Shown one piece after another: positions 111 through 45,759 of a stretch of 64,000 bases of DNA. The position numbers and the translations under genes are program-made. A model generated the notes under the pieces. That model saw nothing but the letters and a program-made list of their open reading frames with translations. It had not been told where the DNA came from and did no database searches. Each line of letters begins with the position of its first letter. Within the stretch, counting starts at the first letter, position 1. Source of the DNA: Eledone cirrhosa (taxonomy: Eukaryota); assembly GCA_964016885.1 (NCBI GenBank), contig OZ024755.1:3286001-3350000 (forward strand). Direction: 5' to 3'.

Positions 111-266
111 GGTAAATTCCGTAGTATCAACCAACTATTAACTGACGTGTATGTACATGTTGGTAACAGTCTCTGTACTGATCTGAAACCACATGACACT
201 GCATTAATGTGTACACCACCTCCGACACCAAATGGTGTTGACAAGGAAGGCAACGCTCCTGTCGTA
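111..266 (+). CDS. MET-like exon: IPT/TIG domain segment ([10 protein letters not shown]...CTPPPTPNG...APVV)
   Basis: ttcttctcag acceptor, gtaagt donor at 267, 52 open codons with an IPT-like V.VG...C....L.C.PP pattern. Confidence 0.82.
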
Positions 267-2966
267 GTAAGTTACCTCTTCTTTTACTTTATAAACCATC
301 TTTCCAACAACAACCCTGAGCACCTGTGGTATACTGGTATAAACACTGGTATATTGGTATAAATACTGGTATACTGGGATAAACACTGGTATACTGGCAT
401 AAACACTGGTATATTGGTATAAATACTGGTATACTGGTATAAACACTGGTATACTGGCATAAACACTGGTATACTGGTATAAACAGTTATATTGGTGTAA
501 ACACTGGTATAAACTCTGCTATATTGGTATAAACACTGGTATACTGGTAAACACTGGTATACTGGTATAAACATCCACAAGATTATTAACCATCTTGCCA
601 ACAACAACCCTCAGCACCTTTTTAAATTCCATATATCCAACACCTATGAACATACAAAGTCAGAAAACATCACAGCTCCCGTGACTTTCAGAGACATTTT
701 TTCACATTCAGATTTGCTGAAGCATGGAACAAACTACCTGCATCAGTTGTTAGTTGCTAGGACGCTGCATCCTTCAAAACGTCTATACTTTCCGAAATTC
801 GCCAACACCACACCTGATATTTCCCCTCTACACACACGCACGTGTGTTTATGTCTGTGTGTATATCATGACTCATACACTGTTCACTTTCCTGACATTTG
901 TACATTATTCTATGTACTATATATGCACCTTTGATGAGTTGTAGTGCACCTGAGCACTGTGTGTACACAATAATTTTCATTATTATAAACCTCTTCTAAA
1001 CCAAACCCTTCTTACCCAACAACTTTTTATAACTCTTTTTAACAATTCATACTAAAGTCTAATTCCACAGAGACAGTATCGTCTAACTCAACATAGTATA
1101 GTCTAACTCGACAGTATCGTCTAACTCGACATAGTATAGTCTAACTTGACATAATATAGTCTAACTTGACATAATATAGTCTAACTTGACATAGTATAGT
1201 CTAATTCGACATAGACATAGTATAGTCTAACTCGATATAGTATAGTCTAACTCGAATTAGATTAGTTGAAGCAGGTCTCACTCTTACGTCTCAAGTTACT
1301 TCTGAGTTCTAAGAGGGAGACCCAAACCTCTAAGCCACACCAGACCTCCATACATTTTAATTGTGGGGTGAATCCATCATTTTGACATTTTGTTTTTCTC
1401 TTCTTCCTCTTTCAGCTCCATATCGGTCAGTACAAGTCAGACATTGGTTACCTAAGCTACTATGAAGAGCAGGAAGGGGAGCGACCCATAGCCCTTGGAA
1501 TAATCCTTGGTGTGGCCTTACCTATGTTGACCATTATCATCCTGTTGACAGTGTGTGTGGTGAGACGTCACATGAAACATGACCCTAGTGACAACTATAT
1601 TCCAGATGTGCTGAAGGACTATGAGGGCAAGAAAGAAAATGAGGAAACTATTGGAATGAACCACATGTCGGGTGGGACCATGGGTAGGTGCCTGTTATTG
1701 TGTGGGTGTCTACCATAGTGTGGGTGTTGATGTGTGTTATTGTGTGTGTGTGGGTGTAGTGTGTTGATGTGTAGGCGTCTGTTATTGTGTGTGTGTGTGT
1801 GTATGTTGATGTGTAGGTGTCTGCCATAGTGTGTCTGTGTGTGTTGATGTGTAGATGTCTGCCATAGTGTGTAGATGTCTGCCATAGTGTGTCTGTGTGT
1901 GTTGATGTGTGTGTGTTGATGTGTAGATGTCTGCCATAGTGTGTGTGTGTAGATGTCTGCCATAGTGTGTCTGTGTGTGTTGATGTGTGTGTGTAGATGT
2001 CTGCCATAGTGTGTGTGTGTAGGTGTCTGCCATAGTGTGTTGATGTGTAGATGTCTGCCATAGTGTGTGTGTGTTGATGTGTGTGTGTAGGTGTCTGCCA
2101 TAGTGTGTCTGAGTGTGTTGATGTGTGTGTGTAGATGTCTGCCATAGTGTGTGTGTAGGTGTCTGCCATAGTGTGTTTGTGTGTGTGTGTTGAAAACAAC
2201 ACAATGACTACACCAACCTAACAATTGAAGTCTTTACTCTAATAATTCAGTTAGAAGTTCACTAGTAAAGGTACTACACTATGTATGTATGTATGGCCCC
2301 TATAATTCCTGAGGAAGTTGTAGGACCCATACATAAAGATGCTGCCAATTTGTCATTGGTCATGTAATGGGATTAATTAAATTAGATAAATTAATTACAC
2401 CCTACCTTCACCCCAAATGTATCTATAACTCTGGATCTGAATTAGGAATTGGTGTTTATTGATTCTTGTGATTTCTTCTATTCATTTCATTTTATGTCCG
2501 CTTTTCCCTGCTTGCAAGGGTGGGACAGGAACTGATTCTGGCTTGATTTCTACAGCTTGATGCCCCTCCTAACACCAACCTCATTTACAGTGGGTGCTGG
2601 GTGCTTTTTAACTGTGGCACCTCCACGACCACTTTGCAGTGGAATGATAGGGACCCCAGTCCCTATCATCTCATTTCTACAGCTGAGTAAACTGGAGCAA
2701 TGTGAAATAAAGTGTCTTGCTCAAGGAAACAACACATCACTCGGTCTATTGTCTATTTCATTTTATTTTGGTCAGATTCTTCGCAGTACATCAGTGAACT
2801 GTTGGCCAGCTTTGATGATGAACAGGAAAGACAACAAATAACAGAACTACTTATTACACGGAATAAACTTGACATAGGAGAACTCCTTGGTAAAGGTAAG
2901 CATTAAAATAACTAAAACTTTAAAGGAATATTACCGGTTTGGCCTCCTGTGATTTTAATGAAATTT

Positions 2967-3012
<46 letters not shown>

Positions 3013-3095
3013 GTCTGTGTGTGTAAGTATGTATATATATATATGTATATATGTATATATATATAAATATATATATGTGTGTATATATATGTATA

Positions 3096-3186
<91 letters not shown>

Positions 3187-3352
3187 GTGTATATATATAT
3201 ATATGTATATATAAATGTGGTAAGGAACCAGGTGGACCATAACGCACCAAAGTACTCAATACTTAGGGTAGCAGAGTTGGTAATAGGAATGAGTAGAACC
3301 CCGACGGCTAATTCTGGACGGCTTGAGCTCAGCCGTCGGGGTCCTACTCGTT

Positions 3353-3402
<50 letters not shown>

Positions 3403-5059
3403 ATATTTATGTGTTCTGTGGTTTTAATGCTAGAAACTTGTTGAATGCAATGTTACATTTCTTTCTTATCAGGTAACTTTGGTGTAGCATACAAAGCCCA
3501 GTTTACTAAGTGTGACACTGAGCCACCTATGACTGTTGCTGTCAAGTCTTTACAAGGTAAATTAAATCTATAACAACTCTTACACCTGCAATATATATAT
3601 ACAGTTAAATTCCGGTATAACGAAATTCACGGGGTATAAAAAAATATTGTTGTAACGAAGAATTCTTTATAACAATATTGACCGAAAGAAATCGAGTATT
3701 TGTTTGTTATTACTCTGGGGATTGAAAAAACAATTTGTTATACTGAAAAATTTGTTATAATGGTATTCATTATAACGGAATATTACCTGTATCATCATTT
3801 AATTTCTGCTTTCCCTGCTAGCAAGGGTTTGACAGGTGTACATAGACCAAGTCAGTTCTGAAGAGGAGCTACTGATCTCCCAGACAAGTCAGGATATTAT
3901 TCATGTTACGAAGGGCATCCAGCTGTAGAAATCAAGCCAAAATCAGTTCTGTGTGAGCATGACATGGTCACCTGACCAGACATTTCCCACAACAGGACAA
4001 CTTGTTTAATCTATGCTAGTGTGTAAAAATGGACATAAAACGATGATGATGATGAGATATATATATATATATGTGTGTCTATATATGTCTGATCTTTCAG
4101 TCAACTCATCTATAGATCTATGGATCAATTTCTCTTAAATTGGTATCCTCTCCATTTTCATCTTTAAATCAACTCCACTGTGATCCCTGTATCAACTCCA
4201 CTGTGATCCCTGTATCAACTCCACTGTGATCCCTGTATCAACTTATTCTGTCATTTAATTGCTTAAATATATATTATCATCTATCCCTCGCTTTTCTCTA
4301 GCTTTAGATCAATATTCCATATTCTAATGTAATATTGGCTACTTTCTCTGATCCCTTCTCTTTCAGGTTCCAACACTGATCAGAAGGCGCTACAACAGTT
4401 TCTACGGGATTCACTGGTATTTAAGGAACTCCAACATAACAATGTTCTACCAATAATTGGGGTCTGTCTGACCATTAGTGATGACCCTGTAGTTATTGTA
4501 CCATATATGGAAACAATAGACCTTCGCACACACATTAGGGATTCCAGCAAAGTAAGTGACTATATATATATAAGACCCTCTTCCTGCTATTTCAAGTGTT
4601 AAACTAATATATTCCTTCCATATACTGTACCCCGTTTGTGTTATTATTTCTGTTTCCCTTTGACATATATATATATATATATATAAACATTAGGAAATTT
4701 GAAATTTCAAAATTTAGTTGCCCCAATGTAAATAACTATAATAATAGTTGATATATATAAGGGATTTTTTTCAACTATTATTATATTCATCTGCATTGGG
4801 AGAACTATATTTGATAATTGTTTTTATAATTTGATATATATGTTTTTATAATTTTTAAAATTAGTTTTGATGTACACATTTTTCCAACCTTTTATATATA
4901 TATATCTCACTCTGTTCCTCTTTTGCCAGTCGTTGTCAGTATGTACTCTACTGGACTACGGTCTCCAAGTGGCTGAAGGAATGACCTATTTATCTGAACT
5001 GAAGATCATCCACCACAATTTGTCTGCACGAAACTGTTTGTAAGTACAACTTTAAACAC

Positions 5060-5100
<41 letters not shown>

Positions 5101-7258
5101 ATTATGTAATAAACAACATAAGACAATTTTTCCATTTACTAAAGGTAAATGGAATAATTGACAGACGACCTCAACACAGATGTCTGAAATTCCTCATCAG
5201 AATAAAAATTTAACAGACGTAAGATAGTTCTGTAGCACATATAGAGCACTCTCCTTTCCTTTACTCTTCCTATGGAAATACTTCATATATATATAATTAT
5301 ATATATATACAATATTAACAAATGGAAACTATATTTATAAAACCATATTTATTTCATTATACATATTTCAAGGACACCAAGTTAAATTATGGTGTGCTTT
5401 CGTCAGACAAAATATAATATAGATCAGTTTTATAAATAAATATTGACATACCCTTTTCTCTCTTTCTCTCTCTCTCCTTCTTTTTCTTTCTCTGTAACCC
5501 AACGGTTTATTTTAAAAATAAAAATATCCAATACTATTAATAATATAAGTAAACAACTCCACTAACCGGGAGCTTCCAACAGTAATGGTTGCATTTTTTA
5601 AGGGTATGTTAATATTTATTTATAAAACTGATCTATATTATATTTTGTCTGACGAAAGCACACCATAATTTAACTTGGTGTCCTTGAAATATGTATCATG
5701 AAATAAATATGGCTTTATAAATATAGTTTCCATTTGTTAATATCGTATGTTTACTCCAAATACTTGTTGAGTGCTTTATATCAGTTATAAAAATATTTGC
5801 TTGTTGTATCCCAACAATTTAAATAGAACTTATATATATATATAAGAAATTAGTATATTTACCAACATATTTATACAGATGTATATTTACGCTAGTAACT
5901 TTGTGGTTTGATACAGAGAGATGTAGAACAATTATATAAAAGATGTAAAATAAGAAAATTATAGTAATAAAGTCATTTACTTAAATATAGGGAGACACAA
6001 AGCAGGCTTGAAAATTAGGTAGTAACATGTGCTTACGCCGTATTTGACTAAATAGAATTAGTTTGTTAGTTGGGATTTTTAAAAAAAACGTCTGAATGGA
6101 AAAAAGGATGAGTTTTGATGTACATGGGACACGAACCCACATCTTTGGTTTGACCACCAACCTTCCCCCGCCTCCCTCACAAACTCTCTCTAGTATCTGT
6201 CTTTCTGTCCACCAGGTTGTGTGATTATAAAACTGTGAAACTGACCGACATAGGTTTGACCAATGAACTCTTCAGCAAGGACTTCTACTTTACCGAGGAC
6301 CACACTGCTAAGTTACCAGTGAAATGGATGGCTCCAGAGAGTGTTGAACACTTTGTCTTCAGCATCCAAACCGATGTGGTAAGTTCCGTCCTTTACTTTG
6401 TTTTAGGTATCTTGGCCAAGGACAGGCTGGAACACCTTTTTACTTTCTCATTCTTGTTTGATCTCTCTATCTCCTTCTGCAGGGGTGGACAATTGTGAGT
6501 TCAATTCCCACATGTGGAATAAATCATGACATTTCTCAAACATGTAGTTCCAGCAATGTGAATGAAGGAACTTTGACATTGTTGCTGCTTCAACTGCAAT
6601 ACATATATATATAAACACAAACATATATATATGTCATCATCATCATCATCATCATCACCGTTTTACGTCCGTTCTTCCACGCTAGCATGGGTTAGACGAG
6701 TTGTCCTGTTGTGTGCAGCTGACCATGCCTTGCTCATACAGGAACTGATCTGGCTTGATTTCTACAGCTGGATGCCCTTCCTAACACCAACCTCATTTAC
6801 AGTGAGTGCTGGGTGCTTTTTCGTGGCGCCTACACATATGTATATATATATATATATAAACACAAACATATATATATGTATATATATCATCATCATCGTT
6901 TAACGTCCATGTTCCACGCTTGCATGGGTTTGGACCGGAGTTTTCCCACTTGAGGCAAGAGTGGTTGTCATTGCTCGCATAGGACTGTCTGGCGGGTTTT
7001 CTACGGCTGGATGCCCTCCCTAACACCAACCACATTTACAGTGTGGGGCTGGGAGGTTTTTACCGTGTTGCCTACACGGCCACATTACAGCGTGGACTGT
7101 GTGTTTTTTTGTCGTGACACCTACACGATCTCATTTGTTTCGGCCTGGATGTTGTGGCACCAACATAACTTTACATTGAAAGGGGCAGTGTGGATGGGGT
7201 GGGGGTGGTGGGACGGGGATATATATATAAATACAAACATATATATATAAACACAAAC

Positions 7259-7298
<40 letters not shown>

Positions 7299-8762
7299 AC
7301 AAACATATATATATATATGTATATATATATATGTATATATATATAAAAACACAAACATATATATGTATATATAAACACAAACATATATATACATAGAGAG
7401 AGAGAAGAAACCGTTTCGCGCCACAATCAAGATTTTACCTTTCTTTCTTTCTCTGTCTCTCTATAAACACGTGTGCTTCTCTCTACCTGTATGTGCCACT
7501 GTATGTGCCACTGTATGTGCCACTGTATGTGTCTGTATGTGTAGATGTATGTGATTTTATCTACATACTCTTCGTTATTCCAGTGGTCCTATGGAGTGGT
7601 TTTGTGGGAGCTGCTCACCCGTGGTGTGACACCTTATCCAGATGTGGTACCCTGGGATGTGCATAGCTACCTGCAGAGTGGACGACGTATGCAGAAGCCA
7701 AAACATTGCCCAGAATTCATGTAAGTACTAACACTACTACTACTACCACCACCACCACTACTCCACAACAGAGGTGTATATGAAAACATATACAATATGT
7801 CTATGTATAATATACATACCTAATCCCACTGTGAATCTGTTATGCTGTGATCATACAAATGTATTTCAGGATTGTTAATCCATCATTAGTGTTGTTACTT
7901 GGTACTAAGGTATAGAAGCTAATGCTTCATATATATATAGATTTTGCGAATAATGCATTTTTTATGATAGCATATTTGCATATAGTGCAAGCTTGATGAG
8001 ATAGTATTAATTAGTAGTAATATTATATTACACACACACACACACATATATATATATATGTTTACTCTGGGAGAAAACATATTAACTTATCGTACCATTG
8101 AGTGCTTTGTGACTGCCTCAAACAATTCGATTGGTATCTGGTATATTGCAACTACAACTATATATATATACAGAGATTTTGCTCAAGCTCCTTATGTTTA
8201 AGTTACTTGAGGTTGTATATATCCCTAAGGAACAATATTTTATCAACACATTAGTGATATGTATAAGATATTCTCTATATATGTGTGTATATAAGAAAAG
8301 TGTCAGGACTCTACCACCCGGTATCGAGTACTTTGGTGCGTTATGGTCCACCTGGTTACTTACCACCTTCGTTATATATATATGTGGATTAAAATTAAAT
8401 ATATTTTAATCATATTATACCATAAATCAGCCCAAATATGTTTTATACAGGCTAAAATGTGTATTTTGCAGAGCGTTATTTATTCAGTACTATTAAGAAC
8501 ATAGTAAACCAAAAAGTCTATACAATCTTTCTTTTATATTTTATTTTTAACTTATATTTTTGTCTTTCTCTTCTCCAGTTACCAACTGATGTTACGGTGC
8601 TGGCAGGAAGATCCTGATGACCGCCCTGCCTTCTCTGAGGTTTGCACTGCCCTTCGCAGTGTCTCCACCAACGACCCCTCTGTAACGGGGGATGAAGCTC
8701 AGCCCCTGAATGCAACCGTAGAATTTACCGGATCCACGGAATACCTCGAAGTCATCGAATAA
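111..8762 (+). CDS. MET: MET/RON (HGF receptor)-family receptor tyrosine kinase-like gene, 3' part (9 coding exons; 5' end outside window); probable pseudokinase
   Basis: Manually spliced exons 111-266, 1416-1683, 2776-2895, 3473-3556, 4367-4551, 4930-5039, 6216-6378, 7584-7720, 8579-8762. All are GT-AG with consistent phases and form one open frame: IPT-like segment, TM helix, [41 protein letters not shown]. The symbol denotes family, not proven orthology. Confidence 0.9.
325..572. repeat. Intronic minisatellite (aaacactggtatactggtat, ~20 bp unit)
   Basis: Visible tandem iteration. Confidence 0.9.
705..987 (+). mobile_element. 3' end of CR1/L2-like LINE (family also at ~32980-33240 + and ~51050-51105 -)
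   Basis: Encodes the [12 protein letters not shown]...SFK C-terminal motif typical of CR1-group ORF2; copies share the 3' UTR ttgtagtgcacctgagcactgt. Confidence 0.7.
1068..1265. repeat. Minisatellite (ctaactcgacatagtatagt, 20 bp unit)
   Basis: Visible tandem iteration. Confidence 0.9.
1416..1683 (+). CDS. MET-like exon: end of IPT (IGYLSY), transmembrane helix ([28 protein letters not shown]), juxtamembrane
   Basis: ctttcag acceptor; hydrophobic run followed by basic stop-transfer residues; gtaggt donor at 1684 (an alternative phase-1 GT exists at 1672). Confidence 0.85.
1700..2190. repeat. Compound GT-rich minisatellite (gtagatgtctgccatagt + (gt)n)
   Basis: Visible iteration; explains the His/Thr-rich spurious ORFs. 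Confidence 0.9.
2485..2745 (-). mobile_element. SINE family S2 copy (CORE-like domain plus RTE-type tail)
   Basis: Reverse complement of part of the full-length copy at 62858-63301. Confidence 0.75.
2776..2895 (+). CDS. MET-like exon: juxtamembrane to Gly-rich loop (...[10 protein letters not shown])
   Basis: gtcag acceptor, gtaagc donor, phase 1/1. Confidence 0.88.
3213..3356 (-). mobile_element. Palindromic (TA)n-inserted element, family A (half-hammerhead plus GAGTACT tail)
   Basis: ggtaaggaaccaggtggaccataacgcaccaaagtactcaatac followed by a hairpin, flanked by (TA)n; further copies at ~8296-8373, 9980-10170, 12722-12840, 22131-22227, 36977-37181, 57100-57256, 57632-57773. Confidence 0.8.
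3473..3556 (+). CDS. MET-like exon: GNFGVAYKA...VAVKSLQ (subdomains I-II)
   Basis: cttatcag acceptor, gtaaat donor; beta3 Lys retained. Confidence 0.9.
3602..3789. mobile_element. TA-flanked Tc1/pogo(Tigger)-type MITE
   Basis: Imperfect TIRs cagttaaattccggtataacg / cattataacggaatattacctg flanked by TA. Confidence 0.6.
4367..4551 (+). CDS. MET-like exon: alphaC to hinge ([25 protein letters not shown]...[13 protein letters not shown])
   Basis: tttcag acceptor, gtaagt donor. Confidence 0.9.
4930..5039 (+). CDS. MET-like exon: [25 protein letters not shown] (catalytic loop)
   Basis: ttgccag acceptor, gtaagt donor at 5040. Confidence 0.9.
5350..5414 (-). ncRNA. Type I hammerhead ribozyme motif (left arm of palindromic element)
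   Basis: Reverse complement reads tattttgt-CUGACGA-aagcacacca..tggtgtcctt-GAAA-tatgta-UA-atgaaata. Confidence 0.75.
5641..5705 (+). ncRNA. Type I hammerhead ribozyme motif (sense in MET-like intron)
   Basis: Stem I tattttgt/atgaaata (8 bp incl. GU), core CUGACGA 5649-5655, stem II aag-c-acacca/tggtgt-c-ctt, GAAA 5686-5689, minimal stem III, AUC cleavage triplet at 5695-5697. Confidence 0.8.
6216..6378 (+). CDS. MET-like exon: VKLTDIGL...[12 protein letters not shown]...TDV (activation segment)
   Basis: ccaccag acceptor, gtaagt donor; overlaps ORF 6217..6498. Confidence 0.92.
6634..7170 (-). mobile_element. Two S2-type SINE fragments with (CAT)n tails
   Basis: catcatc..gtttaacgtcc..catgggtt..ctggatgcccttcctaacaccaacc; related copies at ~3790-4055, 12435-12670, 14085-14210, 34950-35170, 36710-36940, 53245-53415. 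Confidence 0.75.
7584..7720 (+). CDS. MET-like exon: [21 protein letters not shown]...[13 protein letters not shown]
   Basis: attccag acceptor, gtaagt donor. Confidence 0.92.
8579..8762 (+). CDS. MET-like last coding exon: [20 protein letters not shown]...EYLEVIE*
   Basis: ctccag acceptor, TAA at 8760-8762, AATAAA near 8852. Confidence 0.9.
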
Positions 8763-12959: not shown

Positions 12960-13760
12960 AATATGGAAGTTGAAGGACCCCATAGCCAGTGACAAATTTA
13001 AAAGATTATTACTTGATGCCTTTGACAATAAGGAAGAGCAATTAGAGATATGCGACATAGAAGAACAGTGGCAATTCTTGAAAGTGAACCTGCTGAAAGC
13101 AACGGATGAAATCTGTCGCTGGAGCAGACCTATTGGCAGGAGGAGAGTAACAGTAAGGTAGAAGAGACAATCAAGGCCAAAAAGCAGGCTTGGAAAGTTT
13201 GGCAGGATGGGGGAAGTAGAGAGCACTATCAAGTAGCCAGGAGAAAAGCTAGGAGACAAGTGTACCTTGCAAAAAGGGAAGCAGAGGATAGAAAGTTCAA
13301 GCATGTTCTACAACGCGAGGACCAAATACGCGAGGTGTTCAGGATTGCTAGACAATGTGTCAAGGAAAACCGTGATATTGTCGGAGAGAAGTGTGTACGT
13401 AATGATAACGGTGTACTTGCACTCACTGATGCTGATAAGAAGATAGCCTGGAAGTGTCACTACGAGAGACTATTAAGTGAGGAGAATAAGTGGGAAAAAG
13501 ATAGTCTGCCCCAAATCGATCCAATAGAAGGCCCAGTGGTGCAAGTTAAAGGTAGTATAACAAGTAAGGCAATCAAAAATATGAAGACAGGTAAAGCACC
13601 TGGGCCTTCGGAGATAGTTGAAGGCATCTGGAATGGTGGGACATACTATGGTCACCCAAGTAATACAGAATGGGGTCATACCAAAAGACTGGCGTAGCAG
13701 CATCATCATTAACTGCTACAAGGGTAAAGGAGATGCTCTAGATAGAGGCATTAAGTTAAT
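12960..13760 (+). pseudogene. RTE-clade LINE fragment (duplicate of 23600-24420)
   Basis: Near-identical to 23600-24420, including the 5' flank; contains stops and small deletions. Confidence 0.85.
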
Positions 13761-23599: not shown

Positions 23600-25830
23600 T
23601 GGAAGTTGAAGGACCCCATAGCCAGTGACAAATTAAAAAGCTTATTACTTGATGCCTTTGACAATAAGGAAGAGCAATTATAGATGTGCGACATAGAGGA
23701 ACAGTGGCAATTCTTGAAAGTGAACCTGCTGAAAGCAACGGATGAAATCTGTGGCTGGAGCAGACCTATTGGCAGGAGGAGAGTAACAGTAAGGTAGAAG
23801 AGACAATCAAGGCCAAAAAGCAGGCTTGGAAAGTTTGGCAGGATGGGGGAAGTAGAGAGCACTATCAAGTAGCCAGGAGAAAAGCTAGGAGACAAGTGTA
23901 CCTTGCAAAAAGGGAAGCAGAGGATAGAAAGTTCAAGCATGTTCTACAACGTGAGGACCAAAAGCGCGAGGTGTTCAGGATTGCTAGACAATGTGTCAAG
24001 GAAAACCGTGATATTGTCGGAGAGAAGTGTGTACGTAATGATAACGGTGTACTTGCACTCACTGATGCTGATAAGAAGATAGCCTGGAAGTGTCACTACG
24101 AGAGACTATTAAGTGAGGAGAATAAGTGGGAAAAAGATAGTCTGCCCCAAATCGATCCAATAGAAGGCCCAGTGGTGCAAGTTAAAGGTAGTATAATAAG
24201 TAAGGCAATCAAAAATATGAAGACAGGCAAGGCAGCTGGGCCTTCGGAGATAGTTGCTGAGATGTTGAAGGCATCTGGAATGGTGGGACATACTATGGTC
24301 ACCCGTATAGTTAACCAAGTAATACAGAATGGGGTCATACCAAAAGACTGTAGCAGCATCATCATTAACTGCTACAAGGGTAAAGGAGATGCTCTAGATA
24401 GAGGAAACTATAGAGGCATTAAGTTAATTGACCAGGTCATGAAGGTCACAGAAAGAGTTATAGCGCAACTAATCAGAGAGCGAATTGATCTAGATGAAAT
24501 GCAATTTGGGTTTGTACCACAGACGCTCTATTCCTTGTACGACAACTACAAGAGAAGTACCTAGCTAAAAGTAAACCCCTCTACTTAGCTTTTGTAGACC
24601 TGGAAAAAGCCTTTGACAGAGTCCCCCGCTCCATTATCTGGTGGGCTCTTAGAAAACTAGGTGTAGATGAATGGCTTGTGAGAGTTATACAAGCTATGTA
24701 TAATGAAACAGTCAGTAAGGTTAGAATTAACAATGAATATTGTGAAGAATTTAGTGTAAAAGTTGGTGTTCACCTTAGCCCCCTCCTATTTATTATTGCC
24801 CTTCAGGCTATAACAGAGGAGTTCAAGACCGGCTGCCCATGGGAACTCCTGTACGCAGATGATCTAACGCTCATAGCTGAATCTATGGCTGAACTAGAAA
24901 AGAAATTCCAAACATGGAAGCATGGCCTAGAATCAAAAGGCCTTAAAGTTAACTTGTCTAAGACTAAAGTCCTAGTTTGTAGAAAGGAAAATAAGACACA
25001 GGTACCCTCAGGGAAATGGCCTTGATCAGTGTGTAGGAAAGGAGTAGGCAGAAATTCAATTTTATGTCCCAAATGCAAAGTATGGGTACATAAAAGATGT
25101 AGTGGGATCACAGGTAAACTATCTAAGAACGTAGACTTTATATGTGGCCAATGCTCAGGTGCGATAAGTAGCAAGTGCCCACAGGATACTAGCCCCTTCT
25201 ATTGCTCAGATGGTTCTATAGAAATAGTAGACACTTTCGTTACCTGGGCGACGAGTGTTCTGAAAGTACAGTAGCCAGAGTCAGAATGGGATGGAAAAAG
25301 TTCAGAGAGCTTATACCGCTGTAGGCCACAAAAGGTTTCTCTCTAAAAATGAAAGGCAGATTGTATGATGCTTGTATACAAACAGCAATGCTACATGGCA
25401 GTGAGACATGGGCATTGCGTGCAGAGGATCTGCGTAGACTGGAAAGGAACGAAGCATGCATGCTCCGTTGGATGTGTAATAGTAACATACATGAACGGCA
25501 AAGCATAAATGAACTAAGTGAGAAATTAGGAATAAGAGGGATCAGATGCTGTTTACTTGAGAGAAGACTATGTTGGTATGGCCACGTGATGCGCATGAAA
25601 GACAGCTGTATAAAAAAAGTGCAGGGCGATCAAAATTGATGGTAGTTACGGAGTAGGTAAACCCAGAAAAACCTGGGACGATCTGATAAATTTCGACCTT
25701 ACACACTTGCACCTCTCTAAGACAATGTCACTGGACCGAGATCTTTGGTGCTACGCAGTAATACAGAAGACCTGCTTTGCCTATGTACAAAGCGAAACCT
25801 ACAGCCAGTAGGCACCTCTTAACCAAATAT
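23600..25830 (+). mobile_element. 5'-truncated, decayed RTE-clade LINE (RT domain, Cys-rich segment, 3' UTR)
   Basis: ORFs 23896-24564, 24678-25025, 25029-25274, 25349-25639 give KAAGPS, NYRGIKL, QFGF, FVDLEKAFD, LSPLLF, YADD (24852-24863), LHGSETW, WYGHVMR; broken by stops and frameshifts. Confidence 0.92.
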
Positions 25831-42806: not shown

Positions 42807-44804
42807 TTAACCAAGGTTAAGTGGTGCAGGGGTCAAGAGTTCTGTATCTAAATTAGAATCTAGAGGTTTTTCAGTTGGAGTTAGTTCCATCACAGCCATC
42901 AGCTTCTCCTTGGAATAAGGTTTTTCACTTTTCGTTTTACTGCAATCTTTCTCAATTGAGTCGAGAGCATCTTCAATATCTTCCCGGCTACCTTCTCCAC
43001 TTCCTGGTGTCGGCTCAGTGTTAGACGTATTACCCATATTGGAAGTTAACCCTCCAAACGGACTGGCCATCATGTCTGACATTGTCATTAGAGCAGAACT
43101 GAACTCACTGCCACCCAGTGAAGGTGATGGTGGTAAGAGAGATAAAGAAGTTGGAAACAGCAATCCATTGTTATTTTGGTTTGTCACGCTCTCAGTCGTT
43201 GACGATTCAGTGTTGGTTGTGGTCTTGTTGAGTGGATTCACCGGTTGACCAGTGGTTGAATGAGCTTTCACATGTGTCCAGAGCTGGCTAGAACGGAGAA
43301 ATTCTTTGCCACAAAAATTGCACTTGAACATTCTTGTTGTGTTTGCCGGTGTGCAGCTACCAGCAACAATACCATGGCCACTACATCCATTTTTATCAAA
43401 AGGATTGCATTTGTTGGCCAAAGGCCCTATTACATCGACATTGATATCCACTACAGCCCCATGTTGTTGCCGTAGGTGAGTTGTCAAACTATAAGACTGG
43501 GAAAAGCATTTTTTACGGTCCTCAGGACAATAAGGACATTGGTACGGCCTCTCACCGGAATGAACTCTCATATGTTTTGTCAAGTTCCCAGACTGTGCAA
43601 ATGTTTTTTTGCATACTAAGCATGTATATGGTCTCTCTCCTGTGTGCACTTTGATATGTTCCTTTAAATGACTGGCCTGGGCAAATGTCTTTTTGCAATC
43701 TGTACACTTGTAATGTTTCTCTCGTGTATGAACAGTCATGTGTGTGGAGAGATAGTTAGCGCGAGAGAAGGTTTTCAAACAATATTGACATTCAAATGGT
43801 TTCTCTCCAGTGTGAATACGAAGATGAACAACTAGTGAGTTTGACTGAGAGAATGATTTTTGACAAAAATCACATTCATACGGACGCTCCCCAGTGTGAA
43901 TTCTCAAGTGCTTCGTCAAGTTGCCTGACAATGAGAAGGACTTTTGGCAGAAATCACATGTATAAGGTTTCTCTCCAGTATGAATCTTTAAGTGACCATT
44001 CAAATGCCCGCTTTGAGAAAATCGTTTTTGACAGAACTTGCATTCAAATGGCTTCTCTTCAGTGTGGACTCGCAGGTGAGTTATTAAATAACTGGTCCGT
44101 GAAAACAGTTTGAGACAGTAAGGGCATTCATATGGCTTTTCCTCAGTGTGAATTCGTAGATGAGATGACAGCGTGCCTGACTGGGAAAAGGATTTTTGAC
44201 AGTAACTACATACAAACGGTCTTTCTCCGGTGTGAGTTCTCAAGTGAATTGTCAAGTGACCACTCTGTGAAAACGTCTTGGGACAAAACTTACACTGGTA
44301 AGGCTTCACACCAGTGTGTGTCCGAAGGTGTTCATTAAAGTGACCAGAATGAGAAAAATGTTTCAAACAGAATTTACACTCAAACATTCCTGAACCACTG
44401 CCACTACTGCTTCTGTTGTTTTTATTGTTGTTGTTATCTTTTATGTTGTCTTGGTTGTCTTCACTACAACTATTAGTTGTGGCCTCATTTAATATAGTTG
44501 ATTGTTCCATTTTCCCATTGTTATTATTGTTGTTGTTGTTCATATTGTTACTGTTGTTATTATTGTTGTTATTGCTGCTACTGCTGCTGCTGCTGTTGTT
44601 GCTACTGCTGATATTGTTATTGTCATTAGTATTGGTAAATTCTTGGTTTTCAAAAAGAAAAGACTCAATGCCAGGAGATTTGGGGACACTAGCGAGAGCA
44701 TTACCATCTGCCTGGAATGGCATTGCTGCTGAGAGAACTGGCAGTTTTTCTACCGAATGTGTTAGCATCGATGGCAAAACTGGCAATTTTTCAACAGAAT
44801 GCAT
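42807..44804 (-). CDS. C2H2 zinc-finger protein, 665 aa, 12 fingers, poly-N/S N-terminus; single coding exon
   Basis: Intact ORF with TGEKP/TGERP linkers; in-frame stop just upstream of the ATG; possible 5' UTR acceptor at 44984-44985. Confidence 0.95.
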   Translation of the reverse strand: MHSVEKLPVLPSMLTHSVEKLPVLSAAMPFQADGNALASVPKSPGIESFLFENQEFTNTNDNNNISSSNNSSSSSSSNNNNNNNSNNMNNNNNNNNGKMEQSTILNEATTNSCSEDNQDNIKDNNNNKNNRSSSGSGSGMFECKFCLKHFSHSGHFNEHLRTHTGVKPYQCKFCPKTFSQSGHLTIHLRTHTGERPFVCSYCQKSFSQSGTLSSHLRIHTEEKPYECPYCLKLFSRTSYLITHLRVHTEEKPFECKFCQKRFSQSGHLNGHLKIHTGEKPYTCDFCQKSFSLSGNLTKHLRIHTGERPYECDFCQKSFSQSNSLVVHLRIHTGEKPFECQYCLKTFSRANYLSTHMTVHTREKHYKCTDCKKTFAQASHLKEHIKVHTGERPYTCLVCKKTFAQSGNLTKHMRVHSGERPYQCPYCPEDRKKCFSQSYSLTTHLRQQHGAVVDINVDVIGPLANKCNPFDKNGCSGHGIVAGSCTPANTTRMFKCNFCGKEFLRSSQLWTHVKAHSTTGQPVNPLNKTTTNTESSTTESVTNQNNNGLLFPTSLSLLPPSPSLGGSEFSSALMTMSDMMASPFGGLTSNMGNTSNTEPTPGSGEGSREDIEDALDSIEKDCSKTKSEKPYSKEKLMAVMELTPTEKPLDSNLDTELLTPAPLNLG

Positions 44805-45759
44805 CCTTTCTCATTAAATTTCAAAAGCCCCTTCTTCTTCCAGTGTTCAATGTATTTCAGTAGCAGGTGAAGGCTCTTATTTGACAATTCATTGCTCAGG
44901 AGGGTCCTTGGTATTTAGAGCTTTCAAGATATTTAGACATTTTATCAACTTTAACATTTCTATTTGGAGGTTAAAGAAAACACCTGAATTTGATATAAAT
45001 ACACATGGTAATAACATGAAGATTGTTAGAATAAGGGGTTTGTTTGTTTGTTTGTTTGTTTGATTTTCTGGATAGTAGAATGTTCTAACACATCACATGA
45101 GAAAGGAGAACAAACAATATAACAGTGATGAAAGCTAATGAAACTTTAAAGTTTTTTGAAAAGTTATTTCAAGTTCACCTTATTTCCCACTAATACATTA
45201 ACTTTCAGTTTCTTTATCATTAAAAGAAATCTCCTTGGATTGGATGCTTATAAGTATATAGCTTAGAGTACATTATATATATTTATATACACATAACTTC
45301 ACAGGATATTGGGCCAAAGTATATATATGTATATGTAATATATTTATATGTAACCTCACAAGTTAGGTTAGACCAAAAGTAAACACACACACACACAAAC
45401 ACCTATATATAACACACACAACTTTTAAAGAATTATCACAGATTATTTAAAACTATGAATATATATGTAACAAAATTCAAAAATAACTCACTAACATTTC
45501 AATAATAAAAAGAAATAATTTTTTTTTAAAATATAACAATGAAAAAATTATAGGGTGAAAGGAGAAAAAAAAATGAATAAAAAAATATTTTTCATTTTTT
45601 TTCTTTTCTTGTTTTAAAATGGGGGATAAAATGGCAGACGGGGTCCCTAAAAAACAACAACAAAACTGGAGATAAAATGAAAAAAAAAAAATCAAAGATA
45701 TAGGCACAGAAAATAAAATAGAAATGAAACCCCCATTACTACATATATATTAAATTATC

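Follow-up and report, generated by a model that had tools for sequence, protein, structure and literature searches.

The window examined here, a 64,000-nucleotide stretch of the Eledone cirrhosa assembly GCA_964016885.1 (contig OZ024755.1, positions 3,286,001 to 3,350,000, forward strand), carries part of a receptor gene. The last nine exons are present, on the + strand from position 111 to 8762 (Table 1), and represent approximately the final 30% of the gene, from residue ~1132 of ~1599; the 5′ remainder lies upstream of the window. Spliced together the nine exons give a single open frame ending at a TAA codon, with every acceptor an AG and every donor a GT, which confirms the open exons and canonical splice sites described in the first-pass annotation of this DNA. 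The kinase exons measure 84, 185, 110, 163 and 137 nucleotides, sizes that we take to resemble those of human MET exons 16-20.

Elsewhere in the window there are two long single-ORF C2H2 zinc-finger genes, consistent with the known expansion of zinc-finger genes in cephalopods, and two near-identical, broken retroelement fragments.

Table 1. Positions of features in the window, numbered from its first nucleotide.
Position	Strand	Content	Support
111-266	+	Exon: final part of the plexin-type ectodomain's last IPT/TIG domain	Pfam; orthologue P0001, residue 1132 onwards
1416-1683	+	Exon: membrane-proximal linker, transmembrane helix (1488-1562) containing G-I-I-L-G, NYIP motif of the juxtamembrane region	
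2776-2895	+	Exon: juxtamembrane YIxELL helix, kinase start, start of GxGxxG	
3473-3556	+	Exon: end of Gly-rich loop, β3 VAVK with Lys (3544-3546) kept	
4367-4551	+	Exon: αC helix with Glu to Asp (4408-4410), hinge	Contig support
4571-4632		Very high-copy short repeat in the intron after the αC exon	
4930-5039	+	Exon: catalytic loop HHNLSARN	Contig support and splice join
6216-6378	+	Exon: DIG for DFG (6247-6255), activation loop with single Tyr (6286-6288), KWMAPE	
7584-7720	+	Exon: kinase C-lobe	
8579-8762	+	Last exon: remainder of C-lobe; tail, in which the EYLEV tyrosine (8742-8744) is conserved; TAA stop at 8760-8762	
13110-13697	+	Broken retroelement fragment	
23746-25025	+	Broken retroelement fragment	Reverse transcriptase match PF00078
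27283-29571	-	C2H2 zinc-finger gene, 762 aa stop to stop	
42807-44810	-	C2H2 zinc-finger gene, 667 aa stop to stop	

The spliced product is identical at 411 of 430 positions (95.6%) to proteins from Octopus bimaculoides, O. vulgaris and O. sinensis, and shares 89% identity with that of Argonauta. Pfam assigns Sema, PSI, TIG_plexin, TIG_2, TIG and tyrosine kinase domains to the octopus orthologues, which are ~1598 residues long. The extracellular region falls outside the window and, judged on these 95.6%-identical orthologues, is a complete plexin ectodomain (Sema, three PSI and six IPT). Residues 39-1169 align with residues 15-1177 of the plexin-A1 ectodomain (E 2.8e-151), and the alignments to plexins A2 and A4 are also continuous. 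The kinase domain (PF07714, E 3e-80) best matches MET by sequence and by fold. A complete plexin ectodomain joined to a MET-family kinase identifies the product as the octopus Met-LP, a single-pass receptor that is a paralogue of MET. This family, Met-like with a plexin ectodomain, is described in the excerpts of Junqueira Alves et al. 2019 (PMC6374515).

The earlier designation as a MET/RON-like receptor therefore holds for the kinase and not for the ectodomain. Orthology with MET or RON was rejected on account of the full plexin ectodomain, the separate clade discussed below and an AU test against joining the 17 Met-LP rows of our kinase tree with seven mollusc METs (p=0.004). The shortened Sema-PSI-4xIPT ectodomain of MET and RON is not that of this gene, and the Argonauta MET (P0163) lacks plexin TIG domains. 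Identity as a plexin was likewise rejected, the Ras-GAP and RBD domains (PF08337/PF20170) being absent from P0001-P0003 and present in the true plexins P0198 and P0222; the database name ‘plexin-A1/A4-like’ is misleading. Neither of the names under which the gene is filed, ‘plexin-A’ and ‘HGF receptor’, applies, and the annotation can now be corrected. A SLFHGxC signature, found in the Sema excerpt of Aplysia Met-LP1 given in PMC6374515, is present in 25 proteins of the clade and 0 of 318 others; a possible link to the Aplysia/Capitella Met-LP1 lineage is suggested by the motif in that excerpt and by grouping with one named annelid Met-LP in two trees. A search of the ESM Atlas returned generic tyrosine kinase clusters only.

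Within the ten-residue catalytic-loop stretch (5005-5034) the HRD motif is replaced by HHN (5011-5019, codons CAC CAC AAT). The catalytic aspartate is thus an asparagine (5017-5019) and the arginine a histidine, while the Mg-binding asparagine is kept (5032-5034). DFG reads DIG, and the αC aspartate, in the sequence FLRD, is aligned with the glutamate present in 43 of 43 METs. The GxGxxG motif, spread over 2889-3483, and VAVK (3535-3546) are both intact. The activation loop reads F-x-x-x-F-Y, leaving one of the three MET tyrosines, which we take to be the equivalent of Tyr1235. The motif changes, the intact GxGxxG and VAVK and the single activation-loop tyrosine had been listed by the first-pass annotation and are reproduced in the spliced translation.

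Motif loss alone might speak for an assembly error or a decaying pseudogene, but the contigs and orthologues allow us to regard that explanation as excluded. Genomic-type contigs from run X1 show no differences to the window over 4300-4590 and 4697-5055, and a 4793-nucleotide contig from run X4, comprising exons only, joins 4551 to 4930 (GT..AG, skipping 4552-4929) again with no differences, with the caveat that X1 may be the source of the assembly itself and X4 derives from the same study, such that this support is not fully independent. The X4 contig reaches 3942 nucleotides further upstream, where ~4020 would be expected to the start codon. Assembly error, which the annotation had named among the outcomes that would refute its reading, finds no support over the αC and catalytic-loop exons. 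Full-length open orthologues exist in cephalopods, gastropods and bivalves, and HHN and DIG, whose conservation in other cephalopods had been left for checking, are common to the orthologues of three Octopus species and Argonauta. Coverage in runs X5 and X6 is limited to an intronic repeat. The high-copy repeat at 4571-4632 (Table 1) is also found in the runs of two other organisms.

How far does the lesion extend? We scored 44 clade proteins after excluding isoform duplicates (P0005, P0007, P0008, P0010-P0012, P0014 and P0015) and kinase-less fragments; nine are transcripts, and P0049, P0051, P0080 and P0138, absent from the trees, were assigned by similarity. Asn occupies the catalytic position in 40 and Asp in two, and a further two are uncovered there. 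The αC glutamate is kept in seven of the 44. The HRD arginine position is occupied by Arg (19), Gly (17), His (5) or Ser (1), with two uncovered, and the DFG aspartate position by Asp (35), Glu (5) or Gly (4); the DFG phenylalanine is mostly Tyr (33). The two proteins that carry the catalytic Asp are from scallops and read GFG for DFG, and none of the 41 fully covered mollusc-clade proteins keeps both the HRD and DFG aspartates. The controls behave differently, with Lys, Glu, HRD and DFG kept in seven of seven other Met-LPs (two from Lingula, one each from Paralvinella, Glandiceps and Patiria, and two transcripts) and in 43 of 43 METs. The switch arginines and the tyrosines of the activation loop are mostly lost in the clade: the phospho-switch arginines and the first two tyrosines drift, as does the P+1 proline outside the cephalopods, which keep an LPVKW P+1 loop and one activation-loop tyrosine. 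Unionid mussels have lost both the β3 lysine and the DFG aspartate.

A pseudokinase is defined on sequence by loss of at least one of the β3 lysine, HRD aspartate and DFG aspartate. This describes the window, through its asparagine, and 41 of 41 covered clade proteins, each without the HRD or the DFG aspartate. The octopus Met-LP is very probably catalytically impaired, and the suggestion of a probable pseudokinase in Eledone is supported at the level of sequence and extends to gastropods and bivalves. Two side observations concern individual members. The Asp-bearing scallop Met-LPs (P0028 and P0030) are nested among Asn-bearing bivalves, which points to a probable reversion within a kinase that was dead beforehand. 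Babylonia areolata has a second, more degenerate Met-LP (P0051), in whose gene model the β3 strand and the end of the Gly loop are missing, although this may be a model error.

A maximum-likelihood kinase tree was calculated from 45 rows after the seven catalytic columns had been taken out. All 17 dead rows fall together in a single clade (support 100/99), the branching order of which matches the mollusc classes, and the sister group (98/95) is composed of Paralvinella and two further Met-LPs, all intact. The grouping recurs in an ectodomain tree (quick method, 35 rows), with support of 100 and 98. Since the dead clade is sister to intact, annelid-type Met-LPs the simplest reading of the trees is a single catalytic loss, likely near the mollusc stem, of a gene that would have been active in the mollusc-annelid ancestor; here the sister group amounts to one named annelid and two transcripts, and P0020 is the deepest dead row. 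The mollusc METs, Argonauta P0163 and Sepia P0269 among them, group in a distinct clade, and the phylogeny with MET that the annotation had proposed places the kinase in the MET family yet apart from them. An active paralogue, about which it had also asked, is available in the form of a separate active-type MET in Argonauta and Sepia, the two cephalopods for which one was retrieved, with none from a named Octopus species.

Other Met-LPs and MET-type receptors came to light. Lingula Met-LP was rejected as a sister orthologue, the ectodomain lying beside true plexin P0198 and the kinase outside the clade. The ectodomains of Lingula P0062 and P0063 adjoin P0198, and that of Patiria P0139 adjoins P0222, in each case a GAP-bearing plexin on short branches; the Lingula and starfish kinases are MET-type despite these plexin-near ectodomains. 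The sequences suggest further, fairly recent plexin-kinase fusions, unless there has been misassembly, and with the same proviso Lingula would add a third origin to the two already published. The hemichordate Glandiceps talaboti has a Met-LP with an intact kinase (P0137); hemichordates are not among the taxa in the excerpts of the protein list of PMC6374515. MET-type receptors with intact kinases are also present in chelicerates and a millipede (P0050, P0052, P0053 and P0075, from Tachypleus, Uloborus and Chamberlinius), which contrasts with the statement in the excerpts of PMC6374515 that Mets are not detectable in Ecdysozoa. One gene model of Branchiostoma belcheri (P0064) combines a MET-type kinase with integrin-alpha-type domains (PF01839 and PF08441), which may be a genuine fusion or an error of the model.

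The kinase is the best-conserved large domain of mollusc Met-LP. Constraint was gauged by domain-wise protein identity rather than by dN/dS. Argonauta and the cephalopod-clade protein P0003 share 78% identity in the kinase and 61-72% in blocks of the ectodomain. For the active MET kinase, Argonauta and Sepia share 85% identity, across a species split that may differ from that of Argonauta and P0003. The transmembrane helix is identical at 25 of 25 positions between Argonauta and either P0001 or P0003, and a G-x-x-x-G transmembrane motif occurs in 38 of 39 long clade proteins. An AlphaFold2 model of the cytoplasmic part of the Argonauta orthologue has a mean pLDDT of 88. The best fold matches are MET with ATP (3DKC, Z 37.6, rmsd 2.2 over 300 aligned residues) and RON with AMP-PNP (3PLS, Z 36.6, rmsd 2.1 over 294), in both cases with the tail included. 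Domain identity and the predicted fold, with its MET and RON matches, together indicate that the kinase domain is likely kept as a folded unit. Many inactive-state kinases are among the fold matches and were not taken as evidence of conformation.

The β3 lysine, catalytic-loop asparagine and DFG aspartate are all kept in the window and in 32 of 41 clade proteins, the other nine being without part of this trio. The Gly loop is also kept in the window, as in the HER3-type pattern of ATP/Mg binding. The β2 valine is an alanine in the window and is kept in 17 of 34 proteins, and the glycine after the hinge in 10 of 34. The first-pass annotation had called the receptor possibly ATP-binding; the conserved trio speaks for this and the drift of the β2 valine and post-hinge glycine against it, so that ATP binding by octopus Met-LP appears plausible but uncertain.

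Outside the activation loop, three tyrosines are widely kept among 37 clade proteins, namely those of NYIP (29), YIxELL (35) and the tail EYLEV (28). The tail tyrosine is absent from nine proteins and that of NYIP from eight; docking at these two positions is therefore not universal. Heterodont and unionid clams have lost the tail tyrosine and kept the kinase domain. The tail aligns with the annelid-type EPMYVN...EYLNPI, with the second tyrosine kept and the YVN site, presumably of Grb2 type, lost. The tail tyrosine maps ambiguously onto the tyrosines of MET. A likeness of YIxELL to the LD motifs of paxillin was dropped as the aspartate is missing.

What purpose might such a receptor serve? 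A selected, non-catalytic signalling role for Met-LP is probable. The best overall explanation, and one we judge moderately likely, is a co-receptor with impaired catalysis, in which another, active kinase would phosphorylate the cytoplasmic tyrosines; for trans-phosphorylation as the actual mechanism our confidence is only slightly better than even. A ligand, possibly a semaphorin, would cluster the ectodomain, and the strongly conserved transmembrane helix may aid pairing with itself or another receptor. A partner kinase, for which MET or a Src-type kinase are obvious candidates, would then phosphorylate the NYIP, YIxELL and EYLEV tyrosines, and the phosphotyrosines, or the surface of the folded pseudokinase, would recruit effectors. 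With the upstream YVN site of the annelid-type tail lost, the output would be expected to differ from that of the ancestral receptor. MET is the first candidate as partner because cephalopods retain it and because human MET is reported, in the excerpts of PMC11728269, to phosphorylate kinase-dead ErbB3 and Plexin-B1 in human cells. A complex prediction for the Argonauta Met-LP and MET kinases, run without alignments, scored 0.00 and speaks neither for nor against binding. The selected, HER3-like co-receptor or scaffold envisaged by the annotation is supported by the clade-wide lesions, the tree and the conservation of the kinase, with inactivity itself deduced from the sequence.

Three other explanations deserve consideration. 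The folded pseudokinase, ATP-bound or not, might act independently of phosphorylation as an allosteric or scaffold receptor that binds partners or toggles an active kinase, with the tyrosines serving a structural purpose. The conservation of the kinase over the other large domains suits this idea, as does the tail, which is predicted with high confidence to lie against the kinase as in MET 3DKC and could be buried, and so do the clams that drop the tail tyrosine and retain the domain. On the other hand, most lineages retain the tyrosines of the juxtamembrane region and the tail; we consider the scaffold unlikely. An inhibitory decoy would capture what a plexin or MET binds, whether ligand or partner, and dampen the signal, the cytoplasmic part serving only to stabilise or traffic the receptor. 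A complete plexin ectodomain that comes without a GAP domain or catalytic residues is compatible with this, and excerpts of PMC11728269 indicate that Plexin-B1 can inhibit MET through association. The kinase fold, nucleotide ligands and tyrosines are, however, too well kept for a pure decoy, which we regard as improbable.

More improbable still is an atypical kinase of low activity in which slow autophosphorylation constitutes the signal. The Gly loop, lysine, catalytic-loop asparagine and DFG aspartate are kept, cephalopods have in addition the LPVKW sequence and one activation-loop tyrosine, and weak activity is found despite such lesions in JAK2 JH2 and in HER3, which trans-autophosphorylates weakly in vitro (excerpts of PMC4718504). 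Against this, the unionids are without the lysine and DFG aspartate and the scallops without the DFG aspartate, so that a function conserved throughout the clade cannot be catalytic. Returning to the trans-phosphorylated co-receptor, a bolder form of the proposal is that molluscs, at their origin, converted an active fusion of plexin and MET into a HER3-like, semaphorin-sensing pseudokinase that recruits active MET, an unrecognised, phylum-wide class of pseudo-RTK. This is speculative, and we would not expect it to hold in full. If true, crosstalk from plexin to MET would be hard-wired in one conserved protein where vertebrates use separate chains.

The Met-LP family and receptor pseudokinases as a kind are known; that the mollusc Met-LP is a pseudokinase appears new, in that it was not found in the literature searched, for some of the searches among the matches listed. 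The tree-of-life survey of pseudokinases by Kwon et al. 2019 or the supplement of PMC6374515 could list such sequences as pseudokinases. Catalytic loss is unmentioned in the excerpts of the ‘Met-LP’ papers found, nor do the excerpts of two kinome papers, on oyster (PMC4883820) and on holozoan tyrosine kinases (PMC8662651), describe a mollusc Met-LP pseudokinase. Receptor pseudokinases are few and have been described mainly in vertebrates and flies, and here there is a candidate new subfamily that spans cephalopods, gastropods and bivalves. The intact annelid-type sister orthologues offer a natural before-and-after pair with which to study how a receptor kinase dies and what stays. The retained set is of interest, comprising the ATP ligands, transmembrane helix and docking tyrosines alongside lesions convergent on those of HER3, and, given its plexin ectodomain, the receptor may take part in cell guidance or adhesion.

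Comparison with known systems places the octopus gene among several receptors. The architecture is common to the Met-LPs published as RTKs (excerpts of PMC6374515), in the main text of which the words ‘pseudo’, ‘inactive’ and ‘dead’ are absent. Mollusc members lack the catalytic residues that annelid-type, brachiopod, hemichordate and starfish Met-LPs keep, and judging from these residues the published mollusc Met-LP ‘RTK’ is likely not a working kinase. HER3/ERBB3 displays the same lesions, with the αC glutamate lost and the HRD aspartate changed to asparagine, and binds ATP-Mg through the same retained β3 lysine, catalytic-loop asparagine and DFG aspartate, with weak autophosphorylation in vitro (excerpts of PMC4718504). 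HER3 and mollusc Met-LP are also alike in having an active relative in the same genomes. They differ in that octopus Met-LP is additionally changed at the HRD arginine and the DFG phenylalanine; they represent different RTK families with different ectodomains, and the resemblance is therefore convergent.

MET and RON are alike in kinase sequence and fold, but MET differs from octopus Met-LP in its shortened ectodomain and intact catalytic motifs, and the mollusc METs occupy their own clade. No RxK/RR furin-type site was seen in the six clade ectodomains checked. Class A plexins align over the full length of the ectodomain, and differ from Met-LP in their possession of Ras-GAP and RBD domains. 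PTK7/Off-track, RYK and ROR are also kinase-dead co-receptors, with ectodomains that presumably differ from that of Met-LP. Off-track has been linked to plexin signalling in the excerpts of PMC7203548, where direct binding between PlexA and Off-track is reported to be absent; in Met-LP the plexin ectodomain and the pseudokinase form one chain.
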